NCBI GenBank assembly: GCA_043750125.1
Contig: JAYVCD010000262.1
Coordinates: 1 to 10,857, forward strand
From: Archangiaceae bacterium
GTDB lineage: Bacteria; Myxococcota; Myxococcia; Myxococcales; Myxococcaceae
Length of the DNA stretch: 10,857 bases
Direction of reading: 5' to 3'
Under the pieces are notes generated by a model. The model saw nothing but the letters and a program-made list of their open reading frames with translations. It was not told the DNA's origin and did no database searches. Shown here in pieces: positions 1 through 10,857 of the stretch. Both the position numbers and the translations under genes were made by a program. Numbering within the stretch: position 1 is the first letter of the stretch; each line of letters opens with the position of its first letter.

Positions 1-533
1 CCGCGCATCACCAGGTCGAGCGCGATTTCCGACTTCCCGATGCCGGACTTGCCCATCAGCAGCACCCCGACTCCGAAGACGTCGGTCAGCACCCCGTGCA
101 GGGTGCCGACCGCGGTCAGCGCCTCTTCGAGGTACGCCTGCACCTGGCTGATGAACTGCGAAGAGGCGAGGGTGGTTCGCATCAGCGTCAGCCGGGCGTG
201 CTCGCAGCCCTCTTTGAGCGCGGTGGGAATCTTGAGCCCCTTGGTCACCACCACGCAGGCCAGCTGGGCTTCGAAGATTTTGGCGAGCACCTCTTGCTGC
301 TGCACATCGCTCAGCGTGCGCAGGTAGCTGATCTCGGTGTTCCCGAAGACTTGCATCCGTTCGGGGTGCAGATGCTCGGTGAAGCCCGTCAGCGCCAGCC
401 CAGGCTTCTGAATCCGGGAGGAAGAAATCTTCCGGGTCAGCCCTTCTCTTCCCGCGACGAGCTCGAGCCGGAGGTCGACGTTGTTTGCTTCGAGAAGCTG
501 GGTGATTTCGATGCTCGGCAAAGTCGCGGTCAT
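1..533 (-). CDS. hprK: HPr(Ser) kinase/phosphorylase, N-terminal ~177 codons (runs off the left edge)
   Basis: Manual translation from ATG at 533: MTATLPSIEITQLLEANNVDLRLELVAGREGLTRKISSSRIQKPGLALTGFTEHLHPERMQVFGNTEISYL...LHGVLTDVFGVGVLLMGKSGIGKSEIALDLVMR. It contains the HprK N-domain signature (IQKPGLALTG, RxQVFGxTE) and the Walker A GKSGIGKSE-x-ALDL. Absent from the ORF track because its stop lies outside the window. Confidence 0.96.
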   Translation of the reverse strand, partial: MTATLPSIEITQLLEANNVDLRLELVAGREGLTRKISSSRIQKPGLALTGFTEHLHPERMQVFGNTEISYLRTLSDVQQQEVLAKIFEAQLACVVVTKGLKIPTALKEGCEHARLTLMRTTLASSQFISQVQAYLEEALTAVGTLHGVLTDVFGVGVLLMGKSGIGKSEIALDLVMR

Positions 534-598
534 AAAGGCAGGGGAAGCTTAACCGCCTCGGTCTTCGGGCCAGTCTGGTAAACGCTCAGGTCCCCCCG

Positions 599-2035
599 AT
601 GCGGCGCCTCTCCTTTGCGCAGTTGGTGCTCCTGGGCGGCCTGCTCGTCGGAGCGGCGCTTCGGCTCTGGGTGGCCTTCACCGACGACGGCATCTTCTGG
701 CCCGACGAGGTCTACCAGTCGTTGGAACCTGCCCACCGGTGGGTGTTCGGCTACGGAATGGTGGCCTGGGAGTTCATCGAGGGCGCGCGCAACTGGGCCT
801 TGCCGGGGTTCATCGCTTTCTGGTTCAAGCTGTCGGCGCTGTGCGGGCTCGACTCGCCTTCCGGGTACCTGGGCGTGGTCCGCACGGTGTTCGTCGCGAT
901 TGCGGTCGGCGGGGGCTACGGGGTGTGGCGGCTGGCGCGGGCGTCGGGCGCCGAAGACGTTCCGGCGGCGGTGGCGGCGCTGAGCCTGATGCTCTGCGCC
1001 CCGGCGATTTATTTCTCGCACCGCGCGATGGCCGAGAACGCGAGCGCACTCCCGGTGGTGTTGGGGCTGTGGCTGTTGCTGGAAAAAGAGCAGACCCGGC
1101 GCAGTCGGGTGATCGGCGCTTCGTTGTTGGGGCTGGCGGTGCTGCTTCGCCTGCAATGCGGGCTGTTCTGCGTCGGCGCGCTGGGGGTGTTGTGCGCGCG
1201 CAAGCAGTGGCGGGCGGCGCTCGAGGTGTTCGCGGTGCTGGCGGTGTGGGCGGTGGGGTATGGAGCGCTCGACGCGTTCACCTGGGCGGCTGCTCCGGGA
1301 GCGAAGTACGGGGGCTGGTTTCACTCGGCCTTCAAGTACCTGCAGTTCAACTTGATTGAAGGGCGGGCCTCTCAGTGGGGCACTGCGCCTGCGGCGTTCT
1401 ACGCGCGCGCCCTGTTCACTTCGATGCCGGGAATGGCGCTCGCGCTGGCGCTGGGGATTCTGCTCGCGGTGCGTCGGGCGACCGGGCTGGTGGCGATCGG
1501 TCTGCTCTTCGTCGTCGCGCACAGCGCGATTCCCCACAAGGAGCTGCGCTTCATTCTGCCCGCCTTGCCGTTGCTGTTCGCGGCCGCAGCGGTGGGGTAC
1601 TCGCAGCTGAAGCCGGGCCGGCAGTCGGTGGTGTTGGTCGGGGTGGTGTTGGCGGCGGTGGTGTCGGCGGTGCGGTTTCGGGCGCTGACGTTCGGCGATC
1701 TGGGCGCGTATCCGGAACGAAAGGACGCCAGCGCCTGGGATGACTACGGGCCGGTGTTCCGGTTGATGCGCACCGCGAGCCGGTTTCCCGACGTCTGCGG
1801 TTTGTGGATTGAAGTCCACCTCGCGTGGACAGGGGGCAGCACCTACCTGCACCGGCGGGCGCCGCTGTACATGCCGGGAATGCCGGTACCGGCGGGGGCG
1901 GTCAATTACGCGATCGCCTCGCGGGGGAAGATTGCCGGAGGCACGGTGGTCGCGTCGGAGGGAGGCATGGACCTCGTTCGACTGCCGGTTTCCCAGTGCA
2001 CAGCGGACCCCGGCTACGGGTGGATCTTGCCGTAG
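599..2035 (+). CDS. Polytopic membrane glycosyltransferase, GT-C fold, PIG-B/GPI10/Alg9-like mannosyltransferase family (GT22)
   Basis: 478 aa with many hydrophobic segments. The N-terminal loop motif PDEVYQSLEPAHRWVFGYG..WEF and the later motif HKELRFILP match PIG-B/Alg9 family signatures. Confidence 0.85.
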   Translation: MRRLSFAQLVLLGGLLVGAALRLWVAFTDDGIFWPDEVYQSLEPAHRWVFGYGMVAWEFIEGARNWALPGFIAFWFKLSALCGLDSPSGYLGVVRTVFVAIAVGGGYGVWRLARASGAEDVPAAVAALSLMLCAPAIYFSHRAMAENASALPVVLGLWLLLEKEQTRRSRVIGASLLGLAVLLRLQCGLFCVGALGVLCARKQWRAALEVFAVLAVWAVGYGALDAFTWAAAPGAKYGGWFHSAFKYLQFNLIEGRASQWGTAPAAFYARALFTSMPGMALALALGILLAVRRATGLVAIGLLFVVAHSAIPHKELRFILPALPLLFAAAAVGYSQLKPGRQSVVLVGVVLAAVVSAVRFRALTFGDLGAYPERKDASAWDDYGPVFRLMRTASRFPDVCGLWIEVHLAWTGGSTYLHRRAPLYMPGMPVPAGAVNYAIASRGKIAGGTVVASEGGMDLVRLPVSQCTADPGYGWILP

Positions 2036-2057
2036 GGGGTGCTAGACCCCGCGACAA

Positions 2058-2405
2058 ATGGCCGACTGTCTCTTCTGCAAGATCATCGACGGGCAGATTC
2101 CCGCAGTGAAGAAGGTGCACGAGGACGAGCAGTGCATCGGGTTTCTCGACATCAACCCTCAGGCTCCGACGCACGTGCTGTTCGTTCCGAAACGGCACAT
2201 CGCGACGCTCAATGACTGCACCACCGAAGACCGCGAGTTGATGGGTCATTTGATGTTCGCGGCGGCGAAGCTGGCGCGCGAGAAAGGTGTCAGTGAGACC
2301 GGGTACCGCACGGTGATGAACTGCAACCGCGACGCGGGTCAGACGGTGTTTCACATTCACCTTCATTTGCTCGCCGGCCGCGAGCTGCGGTGGCCTCCCG
2401 GGTAG
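2058..2405 (+). CDS. hinT: Histidine triad (HIT) nucleotide-binding protein, HinT/PKCI-like purine nucleoside phosphoramidase
   Basis: 115 aa with N-terminal DCLFCKI, the FLDINPQAPTHVLFVPKRH segment, the triad GQTVFHIHLHLL and a C-terminal WPPG. Confidence 0.93.
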   Translation: MADCLFCKIIDGQIPAVKKVHEDEQCIGFLDINPQAPTHVLFVPKRHIATLNDCTTEDRELMGHLMFAAAKLAREKGVSETGYRTVMNCNRDAGQTVFHIHLHLLAGRELRWPPG

Positions 2406-2467
2406 TCGCTGACCTCGGCCCGGCCGAATCACCCAGCCTGACCGACCTGTTCCCGCGGCGTTTACGA

Positions 2468-2483
2468 TGGTGCGCGGTTTGCT
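2468..2483 (+). promoter_or_regulatory. Putative sigma54 (RpoN) -24/-12 promoter
   Basis: TGGTGCGCGGTTTGCT has exact GG-N10-GC spacing and is close to the consensus TGGCACG-N4-TTGCW. It is intergenic and ends 12 nt before the ATG at 2496. Confidence 0.65.
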
Positions 2484-2495
2484 CTAGCTGCCGGC

Positions 2496-2672
2496 ATGGA
2501 AACACCTGCCATCATCGAGATTCAACGGGTCGCAAACGAGTGGTTCGTCGTGGTGCCGCAGCGGCAGGGCGCTCCGATCAAGTTCATGTGCGAGAGCCTG
2601 CGGGATGCCCAACGATTCGCAAGCGCGCTTCACGCGCGTCCGGGATCGCCCCCGCCTCGCCGGGTCGTCTAG
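2496..2672 (+). CDS. Small hypothetical protein (58 aa)
   Basis: ATG 2496 to TAG 2670-2672: METPAIIEIQRVANEWFVVVPQRQGAPIKFMCESLRDAQRFASALHARPGSPPPRRVV. The pattern suggests three beta-strands plus a helix, and it is preceded by the sigma54-like site. It is shorter than any ORF in the supplied track. Confidence 0.6.
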   Translation: METPAIIEIQRVANEWFVVVPQRQGAPIKFMCESLRDAQRFASALHARPGSPPPRRVV

Positions 2673-2675
2673 CGC

Positions 2676-2873
2676 TCAAGTCGTTGCGGCCGTGCCCAGG
2701 AGTGCGGTGAATCGTTCGACGCGCGAGCGATGGACGAGCTGAGGATGGATGCGCCGCCCCGAAGTCGCCCGGGCTTCGTGGTGCTCGGAGGCTCGGTAGC
2801 CTGCGGTCTTGCTTCGGTTTGAGATGCGAAGACGGGAGACCACGCTCAGGGCGGGCGTTTGCGTATGGGCCAC
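2676..2873 (-). CDS. Possible small basic hypothetical protein (65 aa)
   Basis: GTG-start ORF that fills the gap and stops 3 nt from the convergent 58-aa ORF. No recognisable motif, so it may be spurious. Confidence 0.25.
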   Translation of the reverse strand: MAHTQTPALSVVSRLRISNRSKTAGYRASEHHEARATSGRRIHPQLVHRSRVERFTALLGTAATT

Positions 2874-2914
2874 CCCGGGTTAGTGAAGCTCGGAGTGCGG
2901 GCATTGGCGGGAAA

Positions 2915-2953
2915 GAGGGTCATTTCAGGGCTGACGAGGGTCTTTTCGAGGGC
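2915..2953. repeat. Imperfect direct repeat, 21-bp period
   Basis: GAGGGTCATTTC-AGGGC at 2915 and GAGGGTCTTTTC-GAGGGC at 2936, in intergenic DNA downstream of the TonB gene. Confidence 0.5.
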
Positions 2954-2983
2954 GTCGTGCGTTTGCAGAGCCGGTCCGCAGCC

Positions 2984-3631
2984 TTACGGTTTGAAGCGCA
3001 CCGGCACGGTGAAGCAGCGGCCGAACGTCTCGGGGCCAAACGGAGCCGCACCCGGCACCACGCAGTCCCGCGCCGCGTGATCGAGCAGCTCTGAGCCCGC
3101 GGAACGAATCAGCGTCGATTCGCGCAGCACCCCGGCCGCATCGAGACAAAAGCGAATCTGCGCCTCGCCGGTCTGGTGGAAACGACGGGCGGCGGCCGGG
3201 TAGCACGTGAGCGCGACCCGCTGCAGCCGGGCCGAGAGCGCGGCGGTATCAATCGGTGCGCCGTCTCCGCTGCGGGCTTCTTCCGAGTCGATCGAGGAGG
3301 CTCCTGCTGCGGACGGAGGGGCTCCTTTGCCTTCGCGGGCCGGGGCCGACCCAGGGTCCACCGCCACTGCCCCCGCCACCCCGCCCGCCACGGCAGGCTT
3401 GCTCACCGGCCGCCGAGGCTGCGGCGCGACGGGCGCTACCGGCTCGACGGGCTTGGCCGCCGGGGGCGAGACGAGAGCCGCCAGCCGCATCACCTCGATT
3501 TGAACCGGCTTGTCCTTCTGTGCTCGTCCGGGCACGAGCGCGACCGGGGCGTCCGCCTCTTCCCAGAACAGCGCCAGCCCCGCGGCGTGCAGCGCCAGCG
3601 ACAGTCCCGCGGCCACGACTTCCCGCTTCAT
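2984..3631 (-). CDS. tonB: TonB-family energy transducer (215 aa)
   Basis: The likely start is ATG 3631 (MKREVVAAGLSLALHAAGLALF), overlapping the ABC gene stop as ATGA. It has an N-terminal TM with S-x3-H, a Pro/Ala-rich linker, and a TonB C-terminal domain (YPAAARRFHQTGEAQIRF...SAGSELLDHAA...VPVRF). The upstream part of the 442-aa track ORF is an off-frame reading of the ABC gene. Confidence 0.88.
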   Translation of the reverse strand: MKREVVAAGLSLALHAAGLALFWEEADAPVALVPGRAQKDKPVQIEVMRLAALVSPPAAKPVEPVAPVAPQPRRPVSKPAVAGGVAGAVAVDPGSAPAREGKGAPPSAAGASSIDSEEARSGDGAPIDTAALSARLQRVALTCYPAAARRFHQTGEAQIRFCLDAAGVLRESTLIRSAGSELLDHAARDCVVPGAAPFGPETFGRCFTVPVRFKP

Positions 3632-4416
3632 CGCGCGGTCTCGGTGAGGACAAAGAACGTTCGACCCTTCGCGGCGACCCCATCGATCGGCACCTGGTAC
3701 AGCGCGGACAGACTCTCTTTCGTCAGCACTTCCCCCGCCGGGCCGGCTGCCTGAACGCGACCGTCCTTGAGCAGCATCGCGTGGGTGGCCCACGCCGACG
3801 CCTGGTTCACATCGTGAAGCACCGCCACCGCCGCCAGTCCCGCATCGACCCGAAGCCGCACCTGTCGCAGCACCGCCACCTGATGCCGCAGATCGAGGAA
3901 CGCGGTCGGCTCGTCGAGCAGCAACAACTCGGGGGCCTGGACCAGGGCGCGGGCGAGCCAGACCAACCGTCGCTCGCCTCCGGACGCCTGGGTGAGCGGG
4001 CGATCTGCAAGGTGTTCGACTCCCAGCTCGGCCAGCGCCGCGCGCGCTCGGGTCACGTCGGAGGCCGATGGGAGGCCCCAGGATCCCAGGTGGGGCGCGC
4101 GTCCCATCAGCGCCAGCTCGAGACCGGTGAACGCCGCTCCTTCGTCCGACGGACTTTGCGGCACCCAGGCGACCTTCCGGGCCAGCTCGGTGCGCGAGAC
4201 CCCGCGCGGGTCGAGGCCACACGCGCGCACTTCGCCCCGGGCCGGCAGCAGCCCCAACGCCACCTTCACCACCGTGCTTTTTCCAGCCCCGTTGGGCCCC
4301 AACAACGCCCACAGTTGTCCGGGTTGAACTTCGAGCGACACCGCATGCAGCACGGGCACCGCGCCGTAGCCGGCCGTCACCGAGCCCAGCGTCAAGCGGG
4401 TCTCGACGGGGCTCAC
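3628..4416 (-). CDS. ABC transporter ATP-binding protein, iron-siderophore/heme/cobalamin (FepC/HmuV/BtuD) family
   Basis: Walker A GPNGAGKST, Q-loop WVPQ, family motif MGRAPH, signature ASGGERR, Walker B LLLLDEPT followed by LDLRHQ, and H-loop LHD. Confidence 0.93.
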   Translation of the reverse strand: MSPVETRLTLGSVTAGYGAVPVLHAVSLEVQPGQLWALLGPNGAGKSTVVKVALGLLPARGEVRACGLDPRGVSRTELARKVAWVPQSPSDEGAAFTGLELALMGRAPHLGSWGLPSASDVTRARAALAELGVEHLADRPLTQASGGERRLVWLARALVQAPELLLLDEPTAFLDLRHQVAVLRQVRLRVDAGLAAVAVLHDVNQASAWATHAMLLKDGRVQAAGPAGEVLTKESLSALYQVPIDGVAAKGRTFFVLTETAR

Positions 4417-5009
4417 TGATTCTCAGCTTTGGCCAACTCGCCCTTCAGCACCTCTTCCAGCGCGCTCGCTTCTTTGACGAACGACGACTCGGGGGTGGAG
4501 TCCTTGCGGCCTTCCATCGCCAGAATCTGAATCCGGTATTTCCGCGCCGTCGTCTCGTTGCGCGCTTCGAGCCGGTCGAAGTCGCCCTTCACCGCGCGCC
4601 AGGCCCGCTCGGCCGGGGGGTACACTTTGGGCGCGGCCGTTTTCTTCTTCTTCCCCAGGCCGGTGAGCTCCTCCGCGTCGGTCACCGGAGCCGGGGCGGG
4701 GGCGACCAGAACTTCTTTGGACTTGAGCTCGCGCGACTTGCGCTCTTTGAGCGTTCCCATCGGACCGTCGCCCAGGCCCAGCTGCGGGTCGCCGCCCTTC
4801 CCCTGTTGCTCGGCTTCCATCTCGGCGCGGAACATGTCCCAGGCCACCGCGCCGCCGACCCCGAGAATCAGCAGCAACGGAATGAGAATGTAGAGCGCCT
4901 TCGAGGTCTTCTTCTTCGGGGCGACTGCGAGCGCAACCTCGTCCACTGCCGCAGGCGATGCGGGAGCTGAAGCGGAAGAAACCGGAGGTTTGGCGGCTGG
5001 ATTCGCCAC
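4413..5009 (-). CDS. Single-pass membrane protein (198 aa) resembling the TM/C-terminal region of the upstream kinase
   Basis: GTG start, basic patch KKKTSK, TM ALYILIPLLLILGVGGAVAW, and a probably helical C-terminal domain. Its stop overlaps the ABC gene start (GTGA 4413-4416). Confidence 0.85.
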   Translation of the reverse strand: MANPAAKPPVSSASAPASPAAVDEVALAVAPKKKTSKALYILIPLLLILGVGGAVAWDMFRAEMEAEQQGKGGDPQLGLGDGPMGTLKERKSRELKSKEVLVAPAPAPVTDAEELTGLGKKKKTAAPKVYPPAERAWRAVKGDFDRLEARNETTARKYRIQILAMEGRKDSTPESSFVKEASALEEVLKGELAKAENQ

Positions 5010-5066
5010 GACTGGGGCGAGGCTGTAGCACGCCGAAAAATTCCGTGCAGCCCGTCGTCGTCGCGC

Positions 5067-7106
5067 TCAGTGCTGCCGGACTTTTCGTTTCCCCGGAGCT
5101 CGAGCCGGCGCTGACGTGTTGGGGGCCGTCAGCGGAGCGAGCTCTCCGTCTACCGGGGGCAGGGGGTGGGCTTCGGGAGCGACTTCCCGACCGGGAAAGG
5201 CGGGGGGGTCGATGGCTATTTCCGGCGGAGGGGCAGACTCCAACGGCTCGGCGTCGTTGGGCGGCTGGGGTTTGACCTCTCGCGAGCGGCGGTCGTCGGT
5301 GCTCGAGGTGCCCATCGGCTTTTGGTTTCGCTCCTGCTCCTGCATCGTCTTTTGCGCCTGGTCCTGGTTCAGGTCGTAAAGGACGAACCCCGCGACGGCC
5401 AGCAGCGCAATCAGGGGAATTACCACCCACATGAAACCGCTGCGACCGGTGGAAGTCGCCCCGGTCGACTCTTCGGCCCGGTCCACCACGGGAGGCGGCT
5501 TGTTCTTCAGTGCCTGCGGAAGCGGAGCGGTGACCGAGCGGGCCGGCAGCGAGGCGCGGCGTCCTTCCATCACCACCGGCACGCGGGCGGGCTCGAAGGT
5601 CTGCGAGGGGACGCTCGTCATCACCGCCGGCAGCCCACCCAACTCAACCCGGGGCGCTTCGAACGCAATTCCCGCCGGAGTGGTGGTCTCGCTCGAAGGC
5701 CAGGGAGTGCTGGGTTGCAGCGTCGGAATCGGGGCTTCATCCGGCATGCTGACCATCGCGCGGGTCGTGACCGGCTCGCCGTTCGCATCGAACGCGCTCG
5801 GGGGGGCGCTGAGCAGCAAGTTGATGCTCGGCATCGTTTCGCGATCTGTCGGGGGCGGCCGGCCGTCGTCTTCTTTCAGACGAAGGGTGGGGACGAAGGA
5901 CAGTCCTCCACCCGGTGAAGTGGGCCTTTCGCTCATTCGAACGCGCAGCGAGCCGGGGCGGGGCAACTCGGGCAGCTCGGGCAGGCCCTTGAGCTTGCGC
6001 GGGTCGGTGGGCATCGGGGTGAGCTCGTGGCTCAGGGGCGAGAGCGAGGCGGCGCGCGTCGGCTCGAGCTCGCGGACCACCAGCGCCGCAGCCAGGCGCT
6101 GTTCCCGCAACGAGGCCAACAGCTTGCGCTCACTGCTGTACTCGACCGCAAAAGCCTCGCGCATGAAGCGACTGCAGCTCTCAGGGCCGGCCGCCGGGTC
6201 GATGTCCACCAGCACCGACATCAGCCGGCCCCGGAATTCTTCCGCGGTCTGGTAGCGCTGGGCCGGGTCGACCGCGAGCGCCTTCATCACCGTCTGCGCC
6301 ACCGGGCCCGGGCACAGCGGCTCTACGTCCTGGATGTTGGGGATGTTGGGGTTGGAGACCCGGGCCAGCAGCTCGTTGGCCGGCACGTCTTCGAAGGGGT
6401 TTTTTCCTGCGACGAGCTCGTAGAGAACCAACCCCACCGAGTAGAGGTCGGTGCGGCGATCCACCTTGGTGTGCCGCGCCTGTTCCGGCGACATGTAGAG
6501 GAACTTTCCGAGCACGATGCTGGGGTTGGTGCGCGCGACGTTGAGCGTCGACTTGGCCAGGCCGAAGTCGATCACCTTCACCTCGCCTTCGTACGAGATG
6601 AGGACGTTCTGCGGGCTCACGTCGCGGTGAACGAGGCCAATTTCTTTCTCGTCCTCATCGCGCTTGCGGTGCGCGTAGGCGAGCGCGTCGAGCACCCGGG
6701 CCAGGGTGTAGAGGACGAAGGTCAAAGGCAGCGGCATGCTGCGCTCGTTGGCGCGGGCGGCGACCTTGCGCAGGTCCTTCCCGTCGACGAATTCGAGCGC
6801 GAGGTACGGCTCGCCTTCGTGCAGCCCCATGTCCAGCACCTGGGCAATCGAGCCGTGCTGAAGCTGGACCAGGGTCTTGGCTTCGTTGACGAAGCGGCTG
6901 ACGAAGTCTTCTTCCTGGGTGAGGTGGGGAAGGATCTTCTTGATCACACACTGCTTCTCGAAACCCTGAACGCCTTCGAGGCGGGCGAGGAAGATTTCTC
7001 CCATGCCTCCGGTGGCCAGAGGCATGAGCAGCGTGTACCGGCCGAATTGAATCGGCTTGAACGGGCGCAAGCGGGTCTGGGGGGTGGGCAGGTGCAACGA
7101 CCACAT
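5067..7106 (-). CDS. Membrane-anchored Hanks-type Ser/Thr protein kinase
   Basis: Motifs LATGGMGEIF, VIKK, HRDVSPQN, DFGLAK, GKFLYMSPEQ and DLYSVG, then a long Pro/Ser/Thr-rich linker, the TM FMWVVIPLIALLAVAGFVLY and a short Pro-rich tail. The exact start is uncertain by a few codons. Confidence 0.96.
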   Translation of the reverse strand: MWSLHLPTPQTRLRPFKPIQFGRYTLLMPLATGGMGEIFLARLEGVQGFEKQCVIKKILPHLTQEEDFVSRFVNEAKTLVQLQHGSIAQVLDMGLHEGEPYLALEFVDGKDLRKVAARANERSMPLPLTFVLYTLARVLDALAYAHRKRDEDEKEIGLVHRDVSPQNVLISYEGEVKVIDFGLAKSTLNVARTNPSIVLGKFLYMSPEQARHTKVDRRTDLYSVGLVLYELVAGKNPFEDVPANELLARVSNPNIPNIQDVEPLCPGPVAQTVMKALAVDPAQRYQTAEEFRGRLMSVLVDIDPAAGPESCSRFMREAFAVEYSSERKLLASLREQRLAAALVVRELEPTRAASLSPLSHELTPMPTDPRKLKGLPELPELPRPGSLRVRMSERPTSPGGGLSFVPTLRLKEDDGRPPPTDRETMPSINLLLSAPPSAFDANGEPVTTRAMVSMPDEAPIPTLQPSTPWPSSETTTPAGIAFEAPRVELGGLPAVMTSVPSQTFEPARVPVVMEGRRASLPARSVTAPLPQALKNKPPPVVDRAEESTGATSTGRSGFMWVVIPLIALLAVAGFVLYDLNQDQAQKTMQEQERNQKPMGTSSTDDRRSREVKPQPPNDAEPLESAPPPEIAIDPPAFPGREVAPEAHPLPPVDGELAPLTAPNTSAPARAPGKRKVRQH

Positions 7107-7239
7107 TGAACAATGTTCTGCGTTGGCACTCCACCGTTGCCGAGCTTTTCCGGCGGCGCGCGGCCCCTTTGCCCGGCCGGGGTGGGCTGATAGGGGGCTT
7201 TCCGGACCGGGTCGCGAGGCCCGAAGTGCCGCAGCGCGC

Positions 7240-8973
7240 TCAGCCCTTCACGCCCGAGAGCGTGCCCGAGGCGCTGTCTTCTTCGATCACTTCGAAAACA
7301 GCGGTGCGGATTTTACTGCCGGACAGCGGCCGTTCGCCCAGCGGAGTCACGTCGAACCGCGCCCCGATGGACGCCAGCGTCTTGCCCGTAATCAGCACCT
7401 GCCCGGGCTCGGCGGTGGCGCAGACCCACGAGGCGATGTTCACCGGCTCACCGATCGCTGTGTAGTCCAGCCGCGCTTCGCTGCCGACCGTGCCCGCGAG
7501 CACCTTGCCGGTGTTGAGACCAATCTTCAGTTGGCAGCGCTCGCGCGGAGGCCGCCTGGCCATCGCTTTTTCCCATTCAAGCTTCAGCGCCACCGCGCAG
7601 CGCACCGCCCGAAGCGCGTCGTCTCCCTTGCTGTACGGAGCGCCGAACAACGCCATCACCCCGTCGCCGAGGAACTTGTCGACCGTTCCTTCGAAGCTGA
7701 AAATCGTGGTGGTCGCCCGCTGGTAGAACTCGTTGAGCAACTCGACCACCCGGTCGGGCGTCACCTTCTGGGCCAGGTTCGAGAACCCGGCGATGTCGGC
7801 GAACAGCACCGTCACCAGCTGCTCTTCGAGGACCGTCATCTTCGCGCCCTTCCGCTTGAGCTCGGTCACCCGTCGCTCGACGATGTCCGGGCCGTGGAAG
7901 CGTTCGAGCGCCTTGCGCAGGTGGAGATCCGTGGTCGGCAACCGCTCTTCGAACTTCTGCACCCCGGTGTAGATGAGCTGCGCCACCGCGGTCGCCACGT
8001 CGAGCAGGTCTTCGAGCGGCTCCGGGCTGATTCCGTGGCGGTTCAAATACAAGACCCCGGCCCAGGGCGCGCCGTTGCCAATCGGAATGCAGAGCACCTG
8101 GTCCACATTGTAGAGGACGACCGATTCCCGTTCGGCGAAGCGCGAATCGTCGCGGACGTCGTTGACGGCGATCGCCGCTCCCTTCGCCAGCGCGGCGTCG
8201 ACCACCGCATCGGACACCGGCACTTCGCCTTTCTCGAGCTTCCCCCCGTGCCGGACTGCGGCAGGGACCACCAACCCCGAGCTGTGGCGCAGCAGCACGA
8301 CTCCGGTGGTGGCGCCGACCCGTTCCATCACCCGGTCGGTCACGTCCTCGAGGAACTCCTGCAGCGAGCTGGCGGTGGCGAGCTTCTCGGCGACCTTGAA
8401 CAGCATCACCAACGAATGCCAGGCAATCGGAGTCTGCTTCGCCGCCTCGAGGTCGACTTCGCCCGTCTTCGGCTGATCGTCTTCGACCAGGTCTGCGTCG
8501 GTGGCGAACGGCATCGTCCCCGGGTTGAACGGCTTGATGTTGTCGAGGACCCGGAGCACCACGCTGTCGCGCACGTCGCGGGCGAGGATCACCGCCGAGC
8601 CGATGTCGATGCCGCGGCCGAAGCGCTTCACCGCTCCGTTCGCGCCCAGGTCCACCATCTCGGTCGCGGCGGTCTCGACCGTCGAGGGCTGCTTGATGAC
8701 CAGCGCGTTTTCGCCGACTTCGAGAACGTCTCCGGCCACCAGGGGCGAGGTGCCGACCAGCGCGGTGCCGTTGACCCTGCTTCCGTTGCGACTTCCGAGA
8801 TCTTCCGCCTGCAGGGCGTCGCCGTTGACGGTGATGCGGGCGTGCTTTCGTGAGACCAGGTCTCCCGAGAGAACGATGTCGTTCTCGTCGGCGCGGCCCA
8901 TGTGGGTCACGCCCTCGGGAAGCTCGTACGCGGTGTCGAAGTACCCCGGACCATTGATGATGAGCTGCCACAT
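7240..8973 (-). CDS. FHA-GAF-class III adenylate/guanylate cyclase domain protein
   Basis: FHA motifs: MGRADEND...VSRKHA...DLGSRNGSRVNG. GAF-like motifs: DVRDDSRF...VLCIPI...GVLYL. Cyclase motifs: VLFADIAGFS, DKFLGDGVMALFGAP, IGLNTG, DYTAIGEPVNIASW. Confidence 0.93.
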   Translation of the reverse strand: MWQLIINGPGYFDTAYELPEGVTHMGRADENDIVLSGDLVSRKHARITVNGDALQAEDLGSRNGSRVNGTALVGTSPLVAGDVLEVGENALVIKQPSTVETAATEMVDLGANGAVKRFGRGIDIGSAVILARDVRDSVVLRVLDNIKPFNPGTMPFATDADLVEDDQPKTGEVDLEAAKQTPIAWHSLVMLFKVAEKLATASSLQEFLEDVTDRVMERVGATTGVVLLRHSSGLVVPAAVRHGGKLEKGEVPVSDAVVDAALAKGAAIAVNDVRDDSRFAERESVVLYNVDQVLCIPIGNGAPWAGVLYLNRHGISPEPLEDLLDVATAVAQLIYTGVQKFEERLPTTDLHLRKALERFHGPDIVERRVTELKRKGAKMTVLEEQLVTVLFADIAGFSNLAQKVTPDRVVELLNEFYQRATTTIFSFEGTVDKFLGDGVMALFGAPYSKGDDALRAVRCAVALKLEWEKAMARRPPRERCQLKIGLNTGKVLAGTVGSEARLDYTAIGEPVNIASWVCATAEPGQVLITGKTLASIGARFDVTPLGERPLSGSKIRTAVFEVIEEDSASGTLSGVKG

Positions 8974-9040
8974 GGGATTCCCCAGTATGGCAAAGCCTGA
9001 ATGAGGTGGGGCAACCGCCGCGTGTTAAATGCGCGGGCAC

Positions 9041-9922
9041 ATGCCCGTTCGCCTCGTCGTCACCGACATGGACAACACGCTCTACTCGTGGGTCGACTAC
9101 ATCGTCCCCGCGATGGAAGCGCTGGTCGCCGCGGTCTGCCAGGCCACCGGCTTCCCCCGAATCAAGGTCGTCCAGTCCTTGAAGACCGTCTATTCGAAGT
9201 ACGAGAGCAACGAGTACCCGTTCGCGCTTCAAGAGAGCACCCTCTACGAGGAGTTCCCCGAGTTCGGCTCGTTCGACAAGCTGATCATCGAGCCGGCCCG
9301 CATGGCGTTTGCCGAGGCGCGGAAGAAATACATGAAGCCGTATAAGGGCGTGCTCTCGACGCTCGAGGCGCTCAAAGAGCGGAAGATTCCGGTCGTCGCG
9401 CTCACCGATGCACCGCGCAATCCGGCCGAGCAGCGCGCCAAGCGCATGGGCTTCGACCTGCTGTTGGGCAGCATCTACACCTTGCCGGGCTTCCAGCTGC
9501 CCGCGTCCCCCGAAGGGCACACCCTGGTCGCGCCGGACATCTTGCAGAAAGAAGAGCGAGGCCACTACCGCGCGGCGTGCCCGGTAATCGAGCTGCCGCG
9601 GGACTACGAGAAGCCCAACCCCAAAGGGCTGCTGCAGATTTGCCGGACCTGGTCGGTGAATCCGGCCGAGGTGTTGGTGATTGGGGATTCGCTGATCAAA
9701 GACATCGGAGTCGCGCGGGAAGTCGGCGCGGTCGATTGCTGGGCGGAATACGGGACCTACGTCAGCCTGGAATACCGGGAACGGCTGGACATCATCTCGG
9801 CGGCGTCGGTCACCCGTCGGCACGCGGCCAGCGTCTACGAGTCGGGGCAATTGCCGCAGAAGGCGACCCACGTGATGTCGAACTTCTCGCAGATTCTCGA
9901 TGTGATCGACGGCACCCGCTGA
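9041..9922 (+). CDS. HAD-superfamily hydrolase (phosphatase/nucleotidase-like)
   Basis: Motif I TDMDNT, motif II ALTD, motif III EKPNP and motif IV IGDSLIKD. ATG 9041 is preferred over 9029 because it places motif I at the usual N-terminal position and 9029 overlaps a -10-like element. Confidence 0.9.
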   Translation: MPVRLVVTDMDNTLYSWVDYIVPAMEALVAAVCQATGFPRIKVVQSLKTVYSKYESNEYPFALQESTLYEEFPEFGSFDKLIIEPARMAFAEARKKYMKPYKGVLSTLEALKERKIPVVALTDAPRNPAEQRAKRMGFDLLLGSIYTLPGFQLPASPEGHTLVAPDILQKEERGHYRAACPVIELPRDYEKPNPKGLLQICRTWSVNPAEVLVIGDSLIKDIGVAREVGAVDCWAEYGTYVSLEYRERLDIISAASVTRRHAASVYESGQLPQKATHVMSNFSQILDVIDGTR

Positions 9923-9926
9923 AGGC

Positions 9927-10067
9927 TCACAGCCTCCAGGTGTAGTTGACCTTCAGCACCAGCCGGGGGTTGAGCGCCAGCCAGGCCTCGGCGATCGCCC
10001 CGGCGCTCGGCCCTCAAGATGGCGTACGGCCGCAGCTGCACCGAGAGCAGCGACGGGGTGGGCAGCC
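9927..10067 (-). pseudogene. 3' remnant of a gene with a beta-barrel-like C-terminus; 5'-truncated and frameshifted
   Basis: The minus strand reads LPTPSLLSVQLRPYAIL, shifts frame by one base near 10014, then reads GPSAGAIAEAWLALNPRLVLKVNYTWRL-TGA(9929-9927). Codons are almost all G/C-ending and the pattern alternates hydrophobic residues. Confidence 0.5.
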
Positions 10068-10457
10068 CTGGCTCCGGTTCGTGCGGTGCGGGGCAACAAT
10101 GACCTGGGAGCCTGGGCCGAGCCGTTGCCCGCCGCGCGAGTCGAACGCTTTCTCGGGGTACCGGTGCTGGTGATCCACATTCTGGGGAAGGTCGACGAGC
10201 CCACGCTGGCCGCCCGGTTCCTGCTCGAAGCCGAGCGACCCCGGGTGGTGATTTACGGGCACAGCCACCAGCCGTTGCTGGAGGTGCAAGACGGGATCCT
10301 CTACTTCAACCCCGGCAGCGCAGGCCCCGGGCGCTTCAAGCTCAAGCCGGCTGCGGGACGGCTGACGATTGAGAAGGGCAAGGTGCAAGGCGAGCTGTTT
10401 GCGCTCGAAGGGGGACAGGCGAGGAAGGTGGGGGAACAGTCGATGGAACTGAGCTAA
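10062..10457 (+). pseudogene. 5'-truncated YfcE/MJ0936/Vps29-like metallophosphoesterase
   Basis: Family-like sequence begins at about AALAPVRAVRGNND and includes IYGHSH and FNPGSAGP. The N-terminal metal-binding motifs (SDTH and HAGD) are absent from the in-frame upstream sequence back to the HAD gene. Confidence 0.8.
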
Positions 10458-10468
10458 TTGAGGCCCCC

Positions 10469-10678
10469 ATGATCAGAGTCGTTTCCCTCGCCATTCTCGC
10501 CGCCGGCATCGTTCTTCTCGTCCTCGGGATCAACGCCTCGAACTCGTTTCATTCCGATGTCTCGCGCTTCTTCACCGGCTCTCCCAGCGATCGCGCGGTC
10601 TGGATGATGACTGGGGGCGTGTTGATGACCGTCGGTGGAATTGCGGGCTTCGCGCTCAACACCAAAAAAGGGCGCTAG
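10469..10678 (+). CDS. Small two-TM membrane protein, DUF3185-like
   Basis: 69 aa with two hydrophobic segments flanking SDVSRFFTGSPSDRAVW, a motif I recognise from DUF3185 proteins. A GAGG RBS lies at 10460-10463. Confidence 0.8.
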   Translation: MIRVVSLAILAAGIVLLVLGINASNSFHSDVSRFFTGSPSDRAVWMMTGGVLMTVGGIAGFALNTKKGR

Positions 10679-10745
10679 CTCCTCCGACCCCATCCACTCG
10701 ACGCGGCCCTCACTTCGCCCCCGGTCACCCGCGCTGGATCTCCGC

Positions 10746-10857
10746 CTACCCGACTGAGCGAAGCGCCGATTCAGTTCGGGGCAGCTTGACCAGCGAGAGC
10801 GTGTGGACGAACGAGTGAAGGGTGTCCCATTGCACGCCGCGGAAGGTGATGCCCGAC
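10746..10857 (-). CDS. 3' end of a gene entering from the right edge; function unknown (possibly a PilZ-like C-terminus)
   Basis: ...SGITFRGVQWDTLHSFVHTLSLVKLPRTESALRSVG-TAG(10748-10746), with mostly G/C-ending codons. The PilZ idea rests only on GxxF followed by a helix. Confidence 0.55.
   Translation of the reverse strand, partial: SGITFRGVQWDTLHSFVHTLSLVKLPRTESALRSVG

Follow-up and report, generated by a model that had tools for sequence, protein, structure and literature searches.

A kinase-less paralogue beside a Hanks-type Ser/Thr kinase in Archangiaceae and its probable origin by duplication within a fused receptor gene

Introduction

Why would the gene of a receptor kinase be followed by a second gene that repeats the membrane end of the kinase and leaves the kinase domain out? 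The question is raised by contig JAYVCD010000262.1 of an Archangiaceae bacterium of the phylum Myxococcota (GenBank assembly GCA_043750125.1), of which positions 1 to 10,857, a stretch of 10,857 nucleotides (nt), were analysed and are referred to here as the window. On its minus strand, a gene for a Hanks-type Ser/Thr kinase of 679 amino acids (aa) is followed by a gene for a membrane protein of 198 aa (the small gene and the small protein in what follows). Here we show by sequence comparison that the outward tail of the kinase and the small protein are paralogous, which confirms an observation made in a preliminary description of the window, and that relatives hold in one gene what is here divided between two. 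It is very probable that a fused ancestor underwent a tandem duplication of its 3' end and that the kinase copy later lost its periplasmic helical bundle. The features on which the argument turns are the following (TM, transmembrane; pLDDT, the per-residue confidence of AlphaFold2).

5067..7106 (-): Hanks-type Ser/Thr kinase gene, 679 aa (open reading frame; Pkinase E 1.5e-32)
6246..7019 (-): kinase catalytic domain, residues 30-287 (PF00069)
5373..5438 (-): kinase TM helix, residues 557-578, FMWVVIPLIALLAVAGFVLYD, paralogous copy 1 of the module TM (Kyte-Doolittle maximum 2.68; aligns with the TM of the small protein)
5070..5372 (-): extracytoplasmic tail of the kinase, residues 579-679 (tail and profile alignments)
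5010..5066 (-): spacer of 57 nt from the kinase stop to the GTG of the small gene (sequence)
4413..5009 (-): small gene, 198 aa, stand-alone copy of the membrane module (open reading frame; 25 homologue clusters)
4830..4898 (-): TM of the small protein, residues 38-60, paralogous copy 2 (hydrophobicity; helix 36-71, pLDDT about 93)
4635..4829 (-): juxtamembrane stretch of the small protein, residues 61-125, with QQGKGG, PMGT, RKSRELK and DAEELTGLGKKKK (pLDDT below 50 at 73-117, predicted disordered)
4434..4616 (-): C-terminal three-helix bundle of the small protein, residues 132-192 (AlphaFold2 pLDDT above 90)

Results

Two single-pass proteins and the module that they share

In the kinase, a cytoplasmic kinase domain is followed by a long Pro-rich linker, one TM helix and an outward tail of ~100 aa. 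The domain is of the Hanks type, scoring 113.5 bits with PF00069 over residues 30-287 where 31.7 is the cut-off; its catalytic motifs are intact (CVIK at 53, HRD at 160, DFG at 180 and SPE at 206), and its dN/dS against same-genus orthologues is about 0.08, a rough value, like every dN/dS given here, as dS (0.5-1.8) approaches saturation. The tail contains a Gln/Glu-rich stretch, PMGT..RRSREVKP, a Pro-rich stretch, DGELAPL and a terminal GKRK patch, and the protein terminates with GKRKVRQH, at the point where a three-helix bundle begins in the fused orthologues described below. Each protein has a single hydrophobic segment (residues 557-578 of the kinase and 38-60 of the small protein). Since the kinase domain has to lie in the cytoplasm, the C-terminal part of either protein is expected on the periplasmic side; the Lys-rich stretch before the TM of the small protein and the acidic stretch after it likewise point to an N-terminus on the inside.

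On comparative sequence evidence the small gene is a real gene, since it has 25 clusters of homologues (48-99% identical) with conserved N- and C-terminus, shows a dN/dS of 0.21-0.28 across the juxtamembrane region and bundle, and occurs in four of the five genomes of the window's genus, the fifth being cut by a contig end inside the kinase. Motifs common to the homologues are the N-terminal MANPAAKP, then QQGQGGE, RKSRELKPKE and LTGLGKKKKP, and the C-terminal KPENQ. We place the start of the gene at the GTG at 5009 because MANPAAKP is conserved among the homologues. The recorded copy P0003 (177 aa) begins 21 residues downstream of that GTG (window 4947-5009), and its recorded start is probably too short. 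The six named records with the small gene are metagenome-assembled genomes labelled Archangiaceae, Myxococcaceae or Myxococcales.

From the alignments we define here a "kinase-linked membrane module". The small protein has a single TM with a conserved Pro, the [RK]SRE motif, an acidic-Leu motif, a Lys patch, the helical bundle and a gene end that abuts an ABC ATPase gene; the kinase tail has the TM and juxtamembrane motifs of the module and lacks its bundle. In the module alignments R93 and E94 are invariant, and P44, S92, L118, G119 and K120 nearly so.

The resemblance between kinase tail and small protein

The preliminary description had called the small gene a kinase-less paralogue of the kinase's membrane and outward part, on the strength of short blocks that are collinear and reach past the TM, and pairwise alignment with shuffle statistics bears it out on both points. 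BLASTP aligns the two proteins at E 0.004, with 28 of 111 positions identical and collinear from the TM to the acidic motif. A Smith-Waterman comparison of kinase residues 541-679 with the small protein scores 92, which none of 2000 shuffles reaches (35.5±6.1), nor any of 2000 shuffles that keep local composition in blocks of 10 (39.8±7.6). When the TM is deleted from both proteins the score is 59 against 31.6±5.5, equalled by 3 of 2000 shuffles, so that hydrophobic bias alone is insufficient to account for the match. Profiles extend the comparison: the tails of six kinases of the window's split type align with the small-protein family over 59 columns from the TM to RKSRELKP (hhalign 94.2%, E 1.2e-7), and family profiles run over the whole genome match the tail of the window kinase at E 4.9e-5, 1.9e-11 and 8.4e-14, the second of these matches spanning profile positions 15-148 of 215 and ending before the bundle. 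One detail of the preliminary description did not survive, namely its pairing of DAEPL in the kinase with DAEEL in the small protein, which is doubtful and probably a mis-pairing; the tail alignment puts the later DGELAPL...GKRK of the kinase in the place of the acidic-Leu motif before the Lys patch.

Between the kinase gene and the small gene no DNA similarity was found (17 against 13.3±1.7, with 27 of 500 codon shuffles reaching 17), which indicates that the duplication is old; a recent duplication or gene conversion in the window was rejected on this result. In the five other split loci the pairwise score after the TM is weak, being reached by 24, 142, 292, 63 and 112 of 1000 shuffles; together with the missing DNA similarity, this suggests that the copies are old and that the kinase copy diverges fast. 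A profile match at E 3e-5 also fell on an unrelated vWA protein (G057), in its Ala/Pro-rich N-terminus and TM, and was dropped as a module; the weakest of the E-values are therefore partly compositional. An early profile scan also matched G061 and G037.

Fused orthologues in relatives

The preliminary description had proposed an HMM search to see whether the C-terminal domain is fused to orthologous kinases, and the outcome is positive: in most same-family relatives the orthologous kinase includes the whole module, from TM and juxtamembrane motifs through the Lys patch to the three-helix bundle. The clearest case is genome G081 of the same family, which has no small gene and whose orthologous kinase, P0028, carries the entire module, with the ABC ATPase gene directly after it. 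This kinase is 46% identical to that of the window through the TM and the SREVK motif, its residues 499-671 align end to end with the small-protein family (hhalign 98.5%, E 1.8e-15), and BLASTP matches it to the small protein of the window at E 7e-9. The two genes of the window align to different parts of P0028, as a gene-fission pair does: residues 1-585 align to the kinase and 499-671 to the small protein, and the ~90 residues common to both alignments are the segment that was duplicated.

When 1.84 billion representatives were searched exhaustively with a profile, 53 of them matched. Eleven of the 53 are full-length proteins of 594-791 aa whose N-termini match the conserved kinase N-terminus of the window kinase and in all of which the module is C-terminal, and several further matches are N-truncated fragments of such fused kinases. 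In the five fused kinases that were scanned (that of G081 and four of the profile matches), Pkinase is the sole Pfam family above its curated cut-off. Within the family, 34 of 201 genomes match a broad module profile, a floor set by a strict first look, and in 30 of these 34 an open frame of 685-989 aa contains the module in full; at least five genera have fused forms. Of 12 fused loci, 11 have the ABC ATPase gene directly after the kinase stop, without an intervening frame that bears a TM, and no ABC frame was seen in the twelfth. The module was found in none of the 185 genomes of a phylum sample outside the family, against 21 of 115 inside it. A homologue search restricted to longer proteins returned no fused form, a result that reflects the sensitivity limit of its word index, since fused forms exist. 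A metagenome locus scan with P0059 as query found none.

Architectures across the family

The relatives fall into several architectures. In type A (fused only) the kinase has the full module and there is no small gene. Type B (fused plus copy) is represented by G214 (L067, C52; 2026-5695, minus strand), in which an orthologous kinase of 800 aa has a module that, though divergent, is full (hhalign 91%, E 1e-6, with a C-terminus that a single-sequence model makes helical), and a stand-alone module gene of 167 aa follows 23 nt downstream, its stop overlapping the start of the ABC ATPase gene. A second such case may be the fused P0081 (791 aa) with P0068 (172 aa), which is 44% identical to the module of P0081; their sole link is an equal longest contig (39,211 nt). 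Type C (truncated kinase plus copy) comprises the window, G154, G211, G075 and G159, together with G178, whose contig shows the end of the kinase tail only. Among the six type-C kinases the TM and basic R-E motif are present in all six, the terminal Lys patch in four and the bundle in none.

The order kinase, small gene where there is one, ABC ATPase, TonB-like gene is kept in every locus compared, save G187, where the kinase is absent. The preliminary description had made linkage of the kinase and the small gene in relatives a point on which its case could fail; the two are adjacent in five of six partner-bearing loci in which the upstream side is visible, and the expectation breaks down in G187.

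Trees of kinases and modules

A maximum-likelihood tree was computed for kinase domains (21 rows). In it the seven partner-bearing kinases, among them P0081, whose label as carrying both forms rests solely on the contig size shared with P0068, lie on one side of a branch (97/95), in a clade nested among 12 fused-only and two truncated kinases. The two truncated kinases of type D, which have no small gene, group elsewhere, with a fused kinase. An earlier kinase tree of 17 rows agrees. In the module tree (31 rows), one clade (91/77) within the fused modules takes in all 16 small proteins and the three kinase-attached modules of this lineage; the 12 small proteins from type-C lineages group together with support of 100/98.

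An earlier module tree had placed some stand-alone proteins in a clade of their own, independent of the first; that clade was discarded as unreliable, since two of its members, P0046 and P0051, are fragments of the fused kinases P0083 and P0085, and two others, P0049 and P0054, come from contigs under 1 kb; their labels were replaced in the 31-row tree. P0083 itself, a fragment, looks like a kinase fused to a module of the small type and, from its place in the sequence tree, could be a re-fusion.

The helical bundle

For the small protein AlphaFold2 gives a long TM helix (residues 36-71), disorder at 73-117 and three helices at 132-150, 152-168 and 174-192 with pLDDT above 90. The bundle is the best-conserved part of the small protein, at 70-75% identity within the genus. 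The extra, probably helical C-terminal domain of ~60 aa that the preliminary description ascribed to the small protein is thus real, as these three predicted helices indicate; it had there been taken for an addition, and in the light of the fused relatives it is instead ancestral and lost from the kinase.

The module appears to have no described counterpart among the resources searched. The small protein has no Pfam or NCBIfam match at E <= 0.01 and no Foldseek match in the PDB at E <= 0.001, a PDB sequence profile search gave nothing under E 0.088, and in the ESM Atlas every TM-score was <= 0.36, which leaves no usable match. A wide VIA-align search returned generic helical bundles only, with a best Z of 8.7, below the meaningful level for helical bundles.

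One further protein, P0077 (318 aa), starts at a module-like TM (VVLLPLFCFITAGAYIGWDLY) and finishes with a helical bundle, with ~180 extra residues between the two; by eye, ~130 of these (about 95-225) resemble helical repeats. The protein is possibly a further variant, possibly a fragment.

Genomic neighbourhood

The genes next to the pair in the window are the following.

7240-8973 (-): gene with FHA, GAF and adenylate/guanylate cyclase domains (Pfam)
3628..4416 (-): FecE/HmuV-like ABC transporter ATPase (Pfam/NCBIfam scans, synteny)
2984..3631 (-): TonB-C-domain protein, 215 aa, with an N-terminal TM (Pfam/NCBIfam scans)

Two junctions are overlaps of 4 nt, the TGA of the small gene with the GTG of the ABC ATPase (GTGA, 4413-4416) and the stop of the ABC ATPase with the ATG of the TonB-C gene (ATGA). 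The 57-nt spacer between the kinase and the small gene is the junction that arose after the duplication; it contains no terminator-like site, and a promoter and terminator scan returned no more sites than shuffles did. Rfam gave no match in the window. The ABC ATPase scores under every NCBIfam equivalog cut-off, and no permease or binding-protein gene lies within the window.

Upstream, the FHA-GAF-cyclase gene, which shares the strand of the kinase gene, ends 133 nt before it; elsewhere among the loci compared the two are not neighbours, and in G155 they lie ~6 kb apart. FHA domains bind phospho-Thr, which makes the product of this gene a candidate target of the kinase. On the other side the locus is flanked by genes for an HPr kinase, an Alg9-like GT22 glycosyltransferase and a HIT hydrolase (window 3-2405), and the ~580 nt between the convergent HIT and TonB-like genes (2406-2983) have no Rfam match. 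The GT22 and HIT genes recur in the split-type G159 (L015 6568-9364; tblastn, 54-80% identical), where an HPr-kinase-like N-terminus, judged by eye only, stands beside them.

Discussion

How the split may have arisen

Taken together, the relatives and the trees suggest a course of events. The ancestor would have been a single bitopic receptor kinase with a cytoplasmic Hanks domain, a disordered linker, one TM, a juxtamembrane stretch containing the [RK]SRE motif, the acidic-Leu motif and the Lys patch, and a periplasmic three-helix bundle; its gene would have been translationally coupled to the ABC ATPase and TonB-like genes that followed it. In one lineage, the 3' end would have been duplicated in tandem, the copied stretch beginning a few residues upstream of the TM and running to the stop codon, so that the first product was a full-module kinase followed by a stand-alone module gene, as G214 still has. 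The downstream copy would have kept the ancestral junction with the ABC ATPase gene and the bundle, and gained a start in the Ala/Pro-rich linker before the TM. In the lineage of the window, the kinase would later have lost its own bundle and come to end at the Lys patch, a loss that apparently occurred more than once.

That the small gene is a tandem duplicate, with subsequent loss from the kinase copy, follows from the nested position of the partner-bearing clade, the state of G214 and the end of the kinase at the Lys patch, and we hold this account with high confidence. The full-module kinase with its copy in G214 is what a tandem duplication of the 3' end predicts. The partial tandem duplication put forward in the preliminary description is upheld by the nested clade, the fused orthologues and G214, with one correction as to its extent: the duplicated unit was the whole module, from TM to stop, and not just the TM and juxtamembrane stretch.

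A putative two-piece receptor

The kinase and the small protein would, as we see it, act as a two-piece receptor in which the small protein bears the periplasmic bundle. Their association would run through the paralogous TM and juxtamembrane segments, and the small protein would thereby control clustering and autophosphorylation of the kinase. A TM is expected in both genes, since an outward domain that leaves a single-pass protein needs a signal-anchor of its own. As a whole, evolution and two-piece receptor together, this is the explanation that we favour, with moderate confidence. Physical association of the two proteins, suggested by analogy, is conceivable at somewhat less than an even chance, and a role as co-receptor is more likely than one as decoy. 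A stronger version, in which the small protein would be an obligate sensor subunit of the kinase acting in trans, comparable to the plant pairs of receptor-like protein and adaptor kinase and held to the kinase by the duplicated TM and juxtamembrane stretch, we offer as a tentative analogy only.

Several findings weigh against this explanation. On the same rough scale as above, the dN/dS of the kinase tail is 0.32-0.37, near that of the disordered linker (0.38-0.40), and the tails match their own partners no better than those of other genomes, with 403 of 720 permutations scoring as high; taken together, these give no sign of co-evolution. In type D, found in G298 (L033, C10, 1257-3971) and G273 (L034, C23, 1378-3952), the kinase ends about 25-30 residues past the TM; bundle and small gene are both missing, and the next gene is that of the ABC ATPase, so that the kinase may not need the bundle. 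Conversely, in type E, found in G187 (L010, C56, 1-3072), the small gene, the ABC ATPase gene and the TonB-like gene occur without an orthologous kinase, so that the small protein may not need the kinase; the upstream neighbour there is an unrelated 365-aa open reading frame without a Pfam family, the other strand carries a TM kinase that is unrelated, and no kinase orthologue was found in the assembly (97% complete, 1380 contigs), the best match being 44% identical. The trees are also less simple than a single event would have them: one clade of all small proteins is rejected (approximately unbiased test, p 3e-5) and P0068 pairs with the module of P0081 (100/100), which calls for more than one duplication or for gene conversion, and the root was set on the most divergent pair, P0052/P0058, rather than on an independent outgroup. 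Finally, the explanation assumes that the ancestral TM or bundle self-associated. Concerted evolution or co-evolution of tail and partner had been considered as a process in its own right and, on the same 403 of 720 permutations, was not seen.

Other explanations

Some of these findings would be read differently if the two products had taken up independent jobs after the split. The module would then serve the ABC ATPase/TonB-like pair or some envelope structure, the small protein would no longer touch the kinase, the kinase tail would be a decaying anchor, and fusion in relatives would merely record a shared pathway. The 3' end of the module abuts the ABC ATPase gene in every architecture (with 4-nt overlaps where the junction was read, in the window, G081 and G214), the three genes left in G187 stand without an orthologous kinase, G298 and G273 retain the kinase without module or small gene, and a linker-like tail with no own-partner signal is what such decay would leave. 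We nevertheless regard independence as unlikely. The kinase is directly adjacent in five of the six partner-bearing loci in which upstream sequence is visible, a TM is retained in every split kinase and the basic R-E juxtamembrane motif in six of six, and the fused state of at least 30 genomes speaks for a close tie in function; the assembly of G187, moreover, is fragmented. A dominant-negative decoy, the other role that the preliminary description had allowed, is rather improbable. Here the small protein would lower trans-autophosphorylation of the kinase by forming non-productive heterodimers through the shared TM and juxtamembrane segment, which it has without a kinase domain, and the tandem genes, 57 nt apart with no terminator-like site between, are consistent with co-expression. 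A pure TM decoy, however, would not need the bundle, which is what the small protein conserves best, and the repeated loss of the kinase bundle only where a small copy exists (g55 truncations excepted) fits replacement in trans better.

As to the direction of change, a deletion between two tandem paralogous repeats is mechanistically easy, and the fused fragment P0083, whose module groups with stand-alone copies and which is possibly a re-fusion, gives a hint that fused kinases might have come from an ancestral split state by deletion between the two TM repeats. We consider this very improbable, given that the partner-bearing kinases are one nested clade (97/95), that fused kinases stand on every deeper branch under the chosen root and occur in at least five genera of the family, and that a complete kinase module beside a small copy, as in G214, is not explained by a primary split. 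The idea that two single-pass proteins look alike by chance or composition can draw on the post-TM pairwise scores, which are not significant in four of six split loci, and on the like E-value obtained for the Ala/Pro-rich region and TM of the unrelated vWA protein. Its likelihood is negligible: the shuffle tests and profile E-values down to 8.4e-14 stand against it, and the fused orthologues, which align to both genes, refute it.

Relation to known systems

To our knowledge, the control of bacterial Hanks kinases by their outward parts is poorly understood outside the PASTA kinases. Gene fission or "Rosetta-stone" pairs, one gene in some genomes and two in others, were reportedly described by Marcotte et al. 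and Enright et al. in 1999. As in such pairs, what many relatives encode in one fused gene is here encoded by two neighbours, and a functional link is thereby implied; unlike them, the halves overlap, with TM and juxtamembrane stretch in both, because the split ran through tandem duplication of the 3' end and then loss, and a genome with the fused gene plus a copy can still be observed. In plants, receptor-like proteins (RLPs) pair with adaptor receptor kinases such as SOBIR1, and truncated paralogues of receptor-like kinases (RLKs) exist. The likeness that the preliminary description drew to plant RLK/RLP pairs holds in so far as a kinase-less single-pass protein bears the outward domain, the outward part of the kinase is short, and the partner derives from a receptor-kinase gene, to judge from the fused module of G081 and the trees. 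It does not extend to the ectodomain, which here is a helical bundle of ~60 aa and three helices without a Pfam family, and not an LRR or LysM domain; the bacterial kinase domain is N-terminal and cytoplasmic with the TM near the C-terminus, there is no sequence relationship, and the pairing of the proteins here is putative. MgrB and SafA are small single-pass membrane regulators that act on the sensor kinase PhoQ. The small protein resembles them as a small bitopic protein encoded near a membrane kinase; MgrB and SafA differ in being far shorter, in having a histidine kinase as their target and in not being paralogous to the kinase that they regulate.

In the searched passages of a survey of bacterial Hanks kinases (10.1101/2025.01.12.632604), a C-terminal TM is the commonest architecture (25 of 42 families), and only three families are linked to a second domain beyond kinase and TM. 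The window kinase is like those kinases in its ordinary architecture and intact catalytic motifs, and unlike them in an outward module that has no Pfam family; in the same passages a kinase-less paralogous partner is not described and the word "co-receptor" has no occurrence. Split-Doa10, in the excerpts of its study considered here, is a membrane protein divided into two genes by fission, and such cases are there called rare (PMC3464245). Doa10, however, is polytopic and was cut between TM segments, whereas the present protein is single-pass and the TM itself was duplicated. Heteromers are a common outcome of duplicating self-associating (homomeric) proteins, according to excerpts of a study of yeast soluble proteins (PMC6711710), which gives an expected reason why the two copies of the TM and juxtamembrane segment might still bind each other. 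In the literature searched, which had subscription journals and supplements outside its scope, no bacterial kinase with a kinase-less paralogous TM partner was found, nor this module.

Significance

The taxa that carry the module are mostly known from uncultured genomes, and the family seems to preserve at least four stages in the dismantling of a receptor: fused kinase, fused kinase plus copy, truncated kinase plus copy, and truncated kinase alone. As read from sequence, this evolutionary series is clean and useful, and the functional role of the pair is putative. At this locus one receptor occurs in natural variants, fused, duplicated, split or truncated, which share a neighbourhood and are directly comparable, and there is a concrete case in which a single-pass membrane protein was split into two genes with its anchor duplicated first. 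The module is an unannotated, family-restricted domain, and its position upstream of an ABC ATPase and a TonB-like gene suggests that Ser/Thr phosphorylation is tied to a system that transports across the envelope or energises it. Should the small protein indeed be an obligate sensor subunit, duplication of the TM would be the general route for the gene fission of single-pass receptors.

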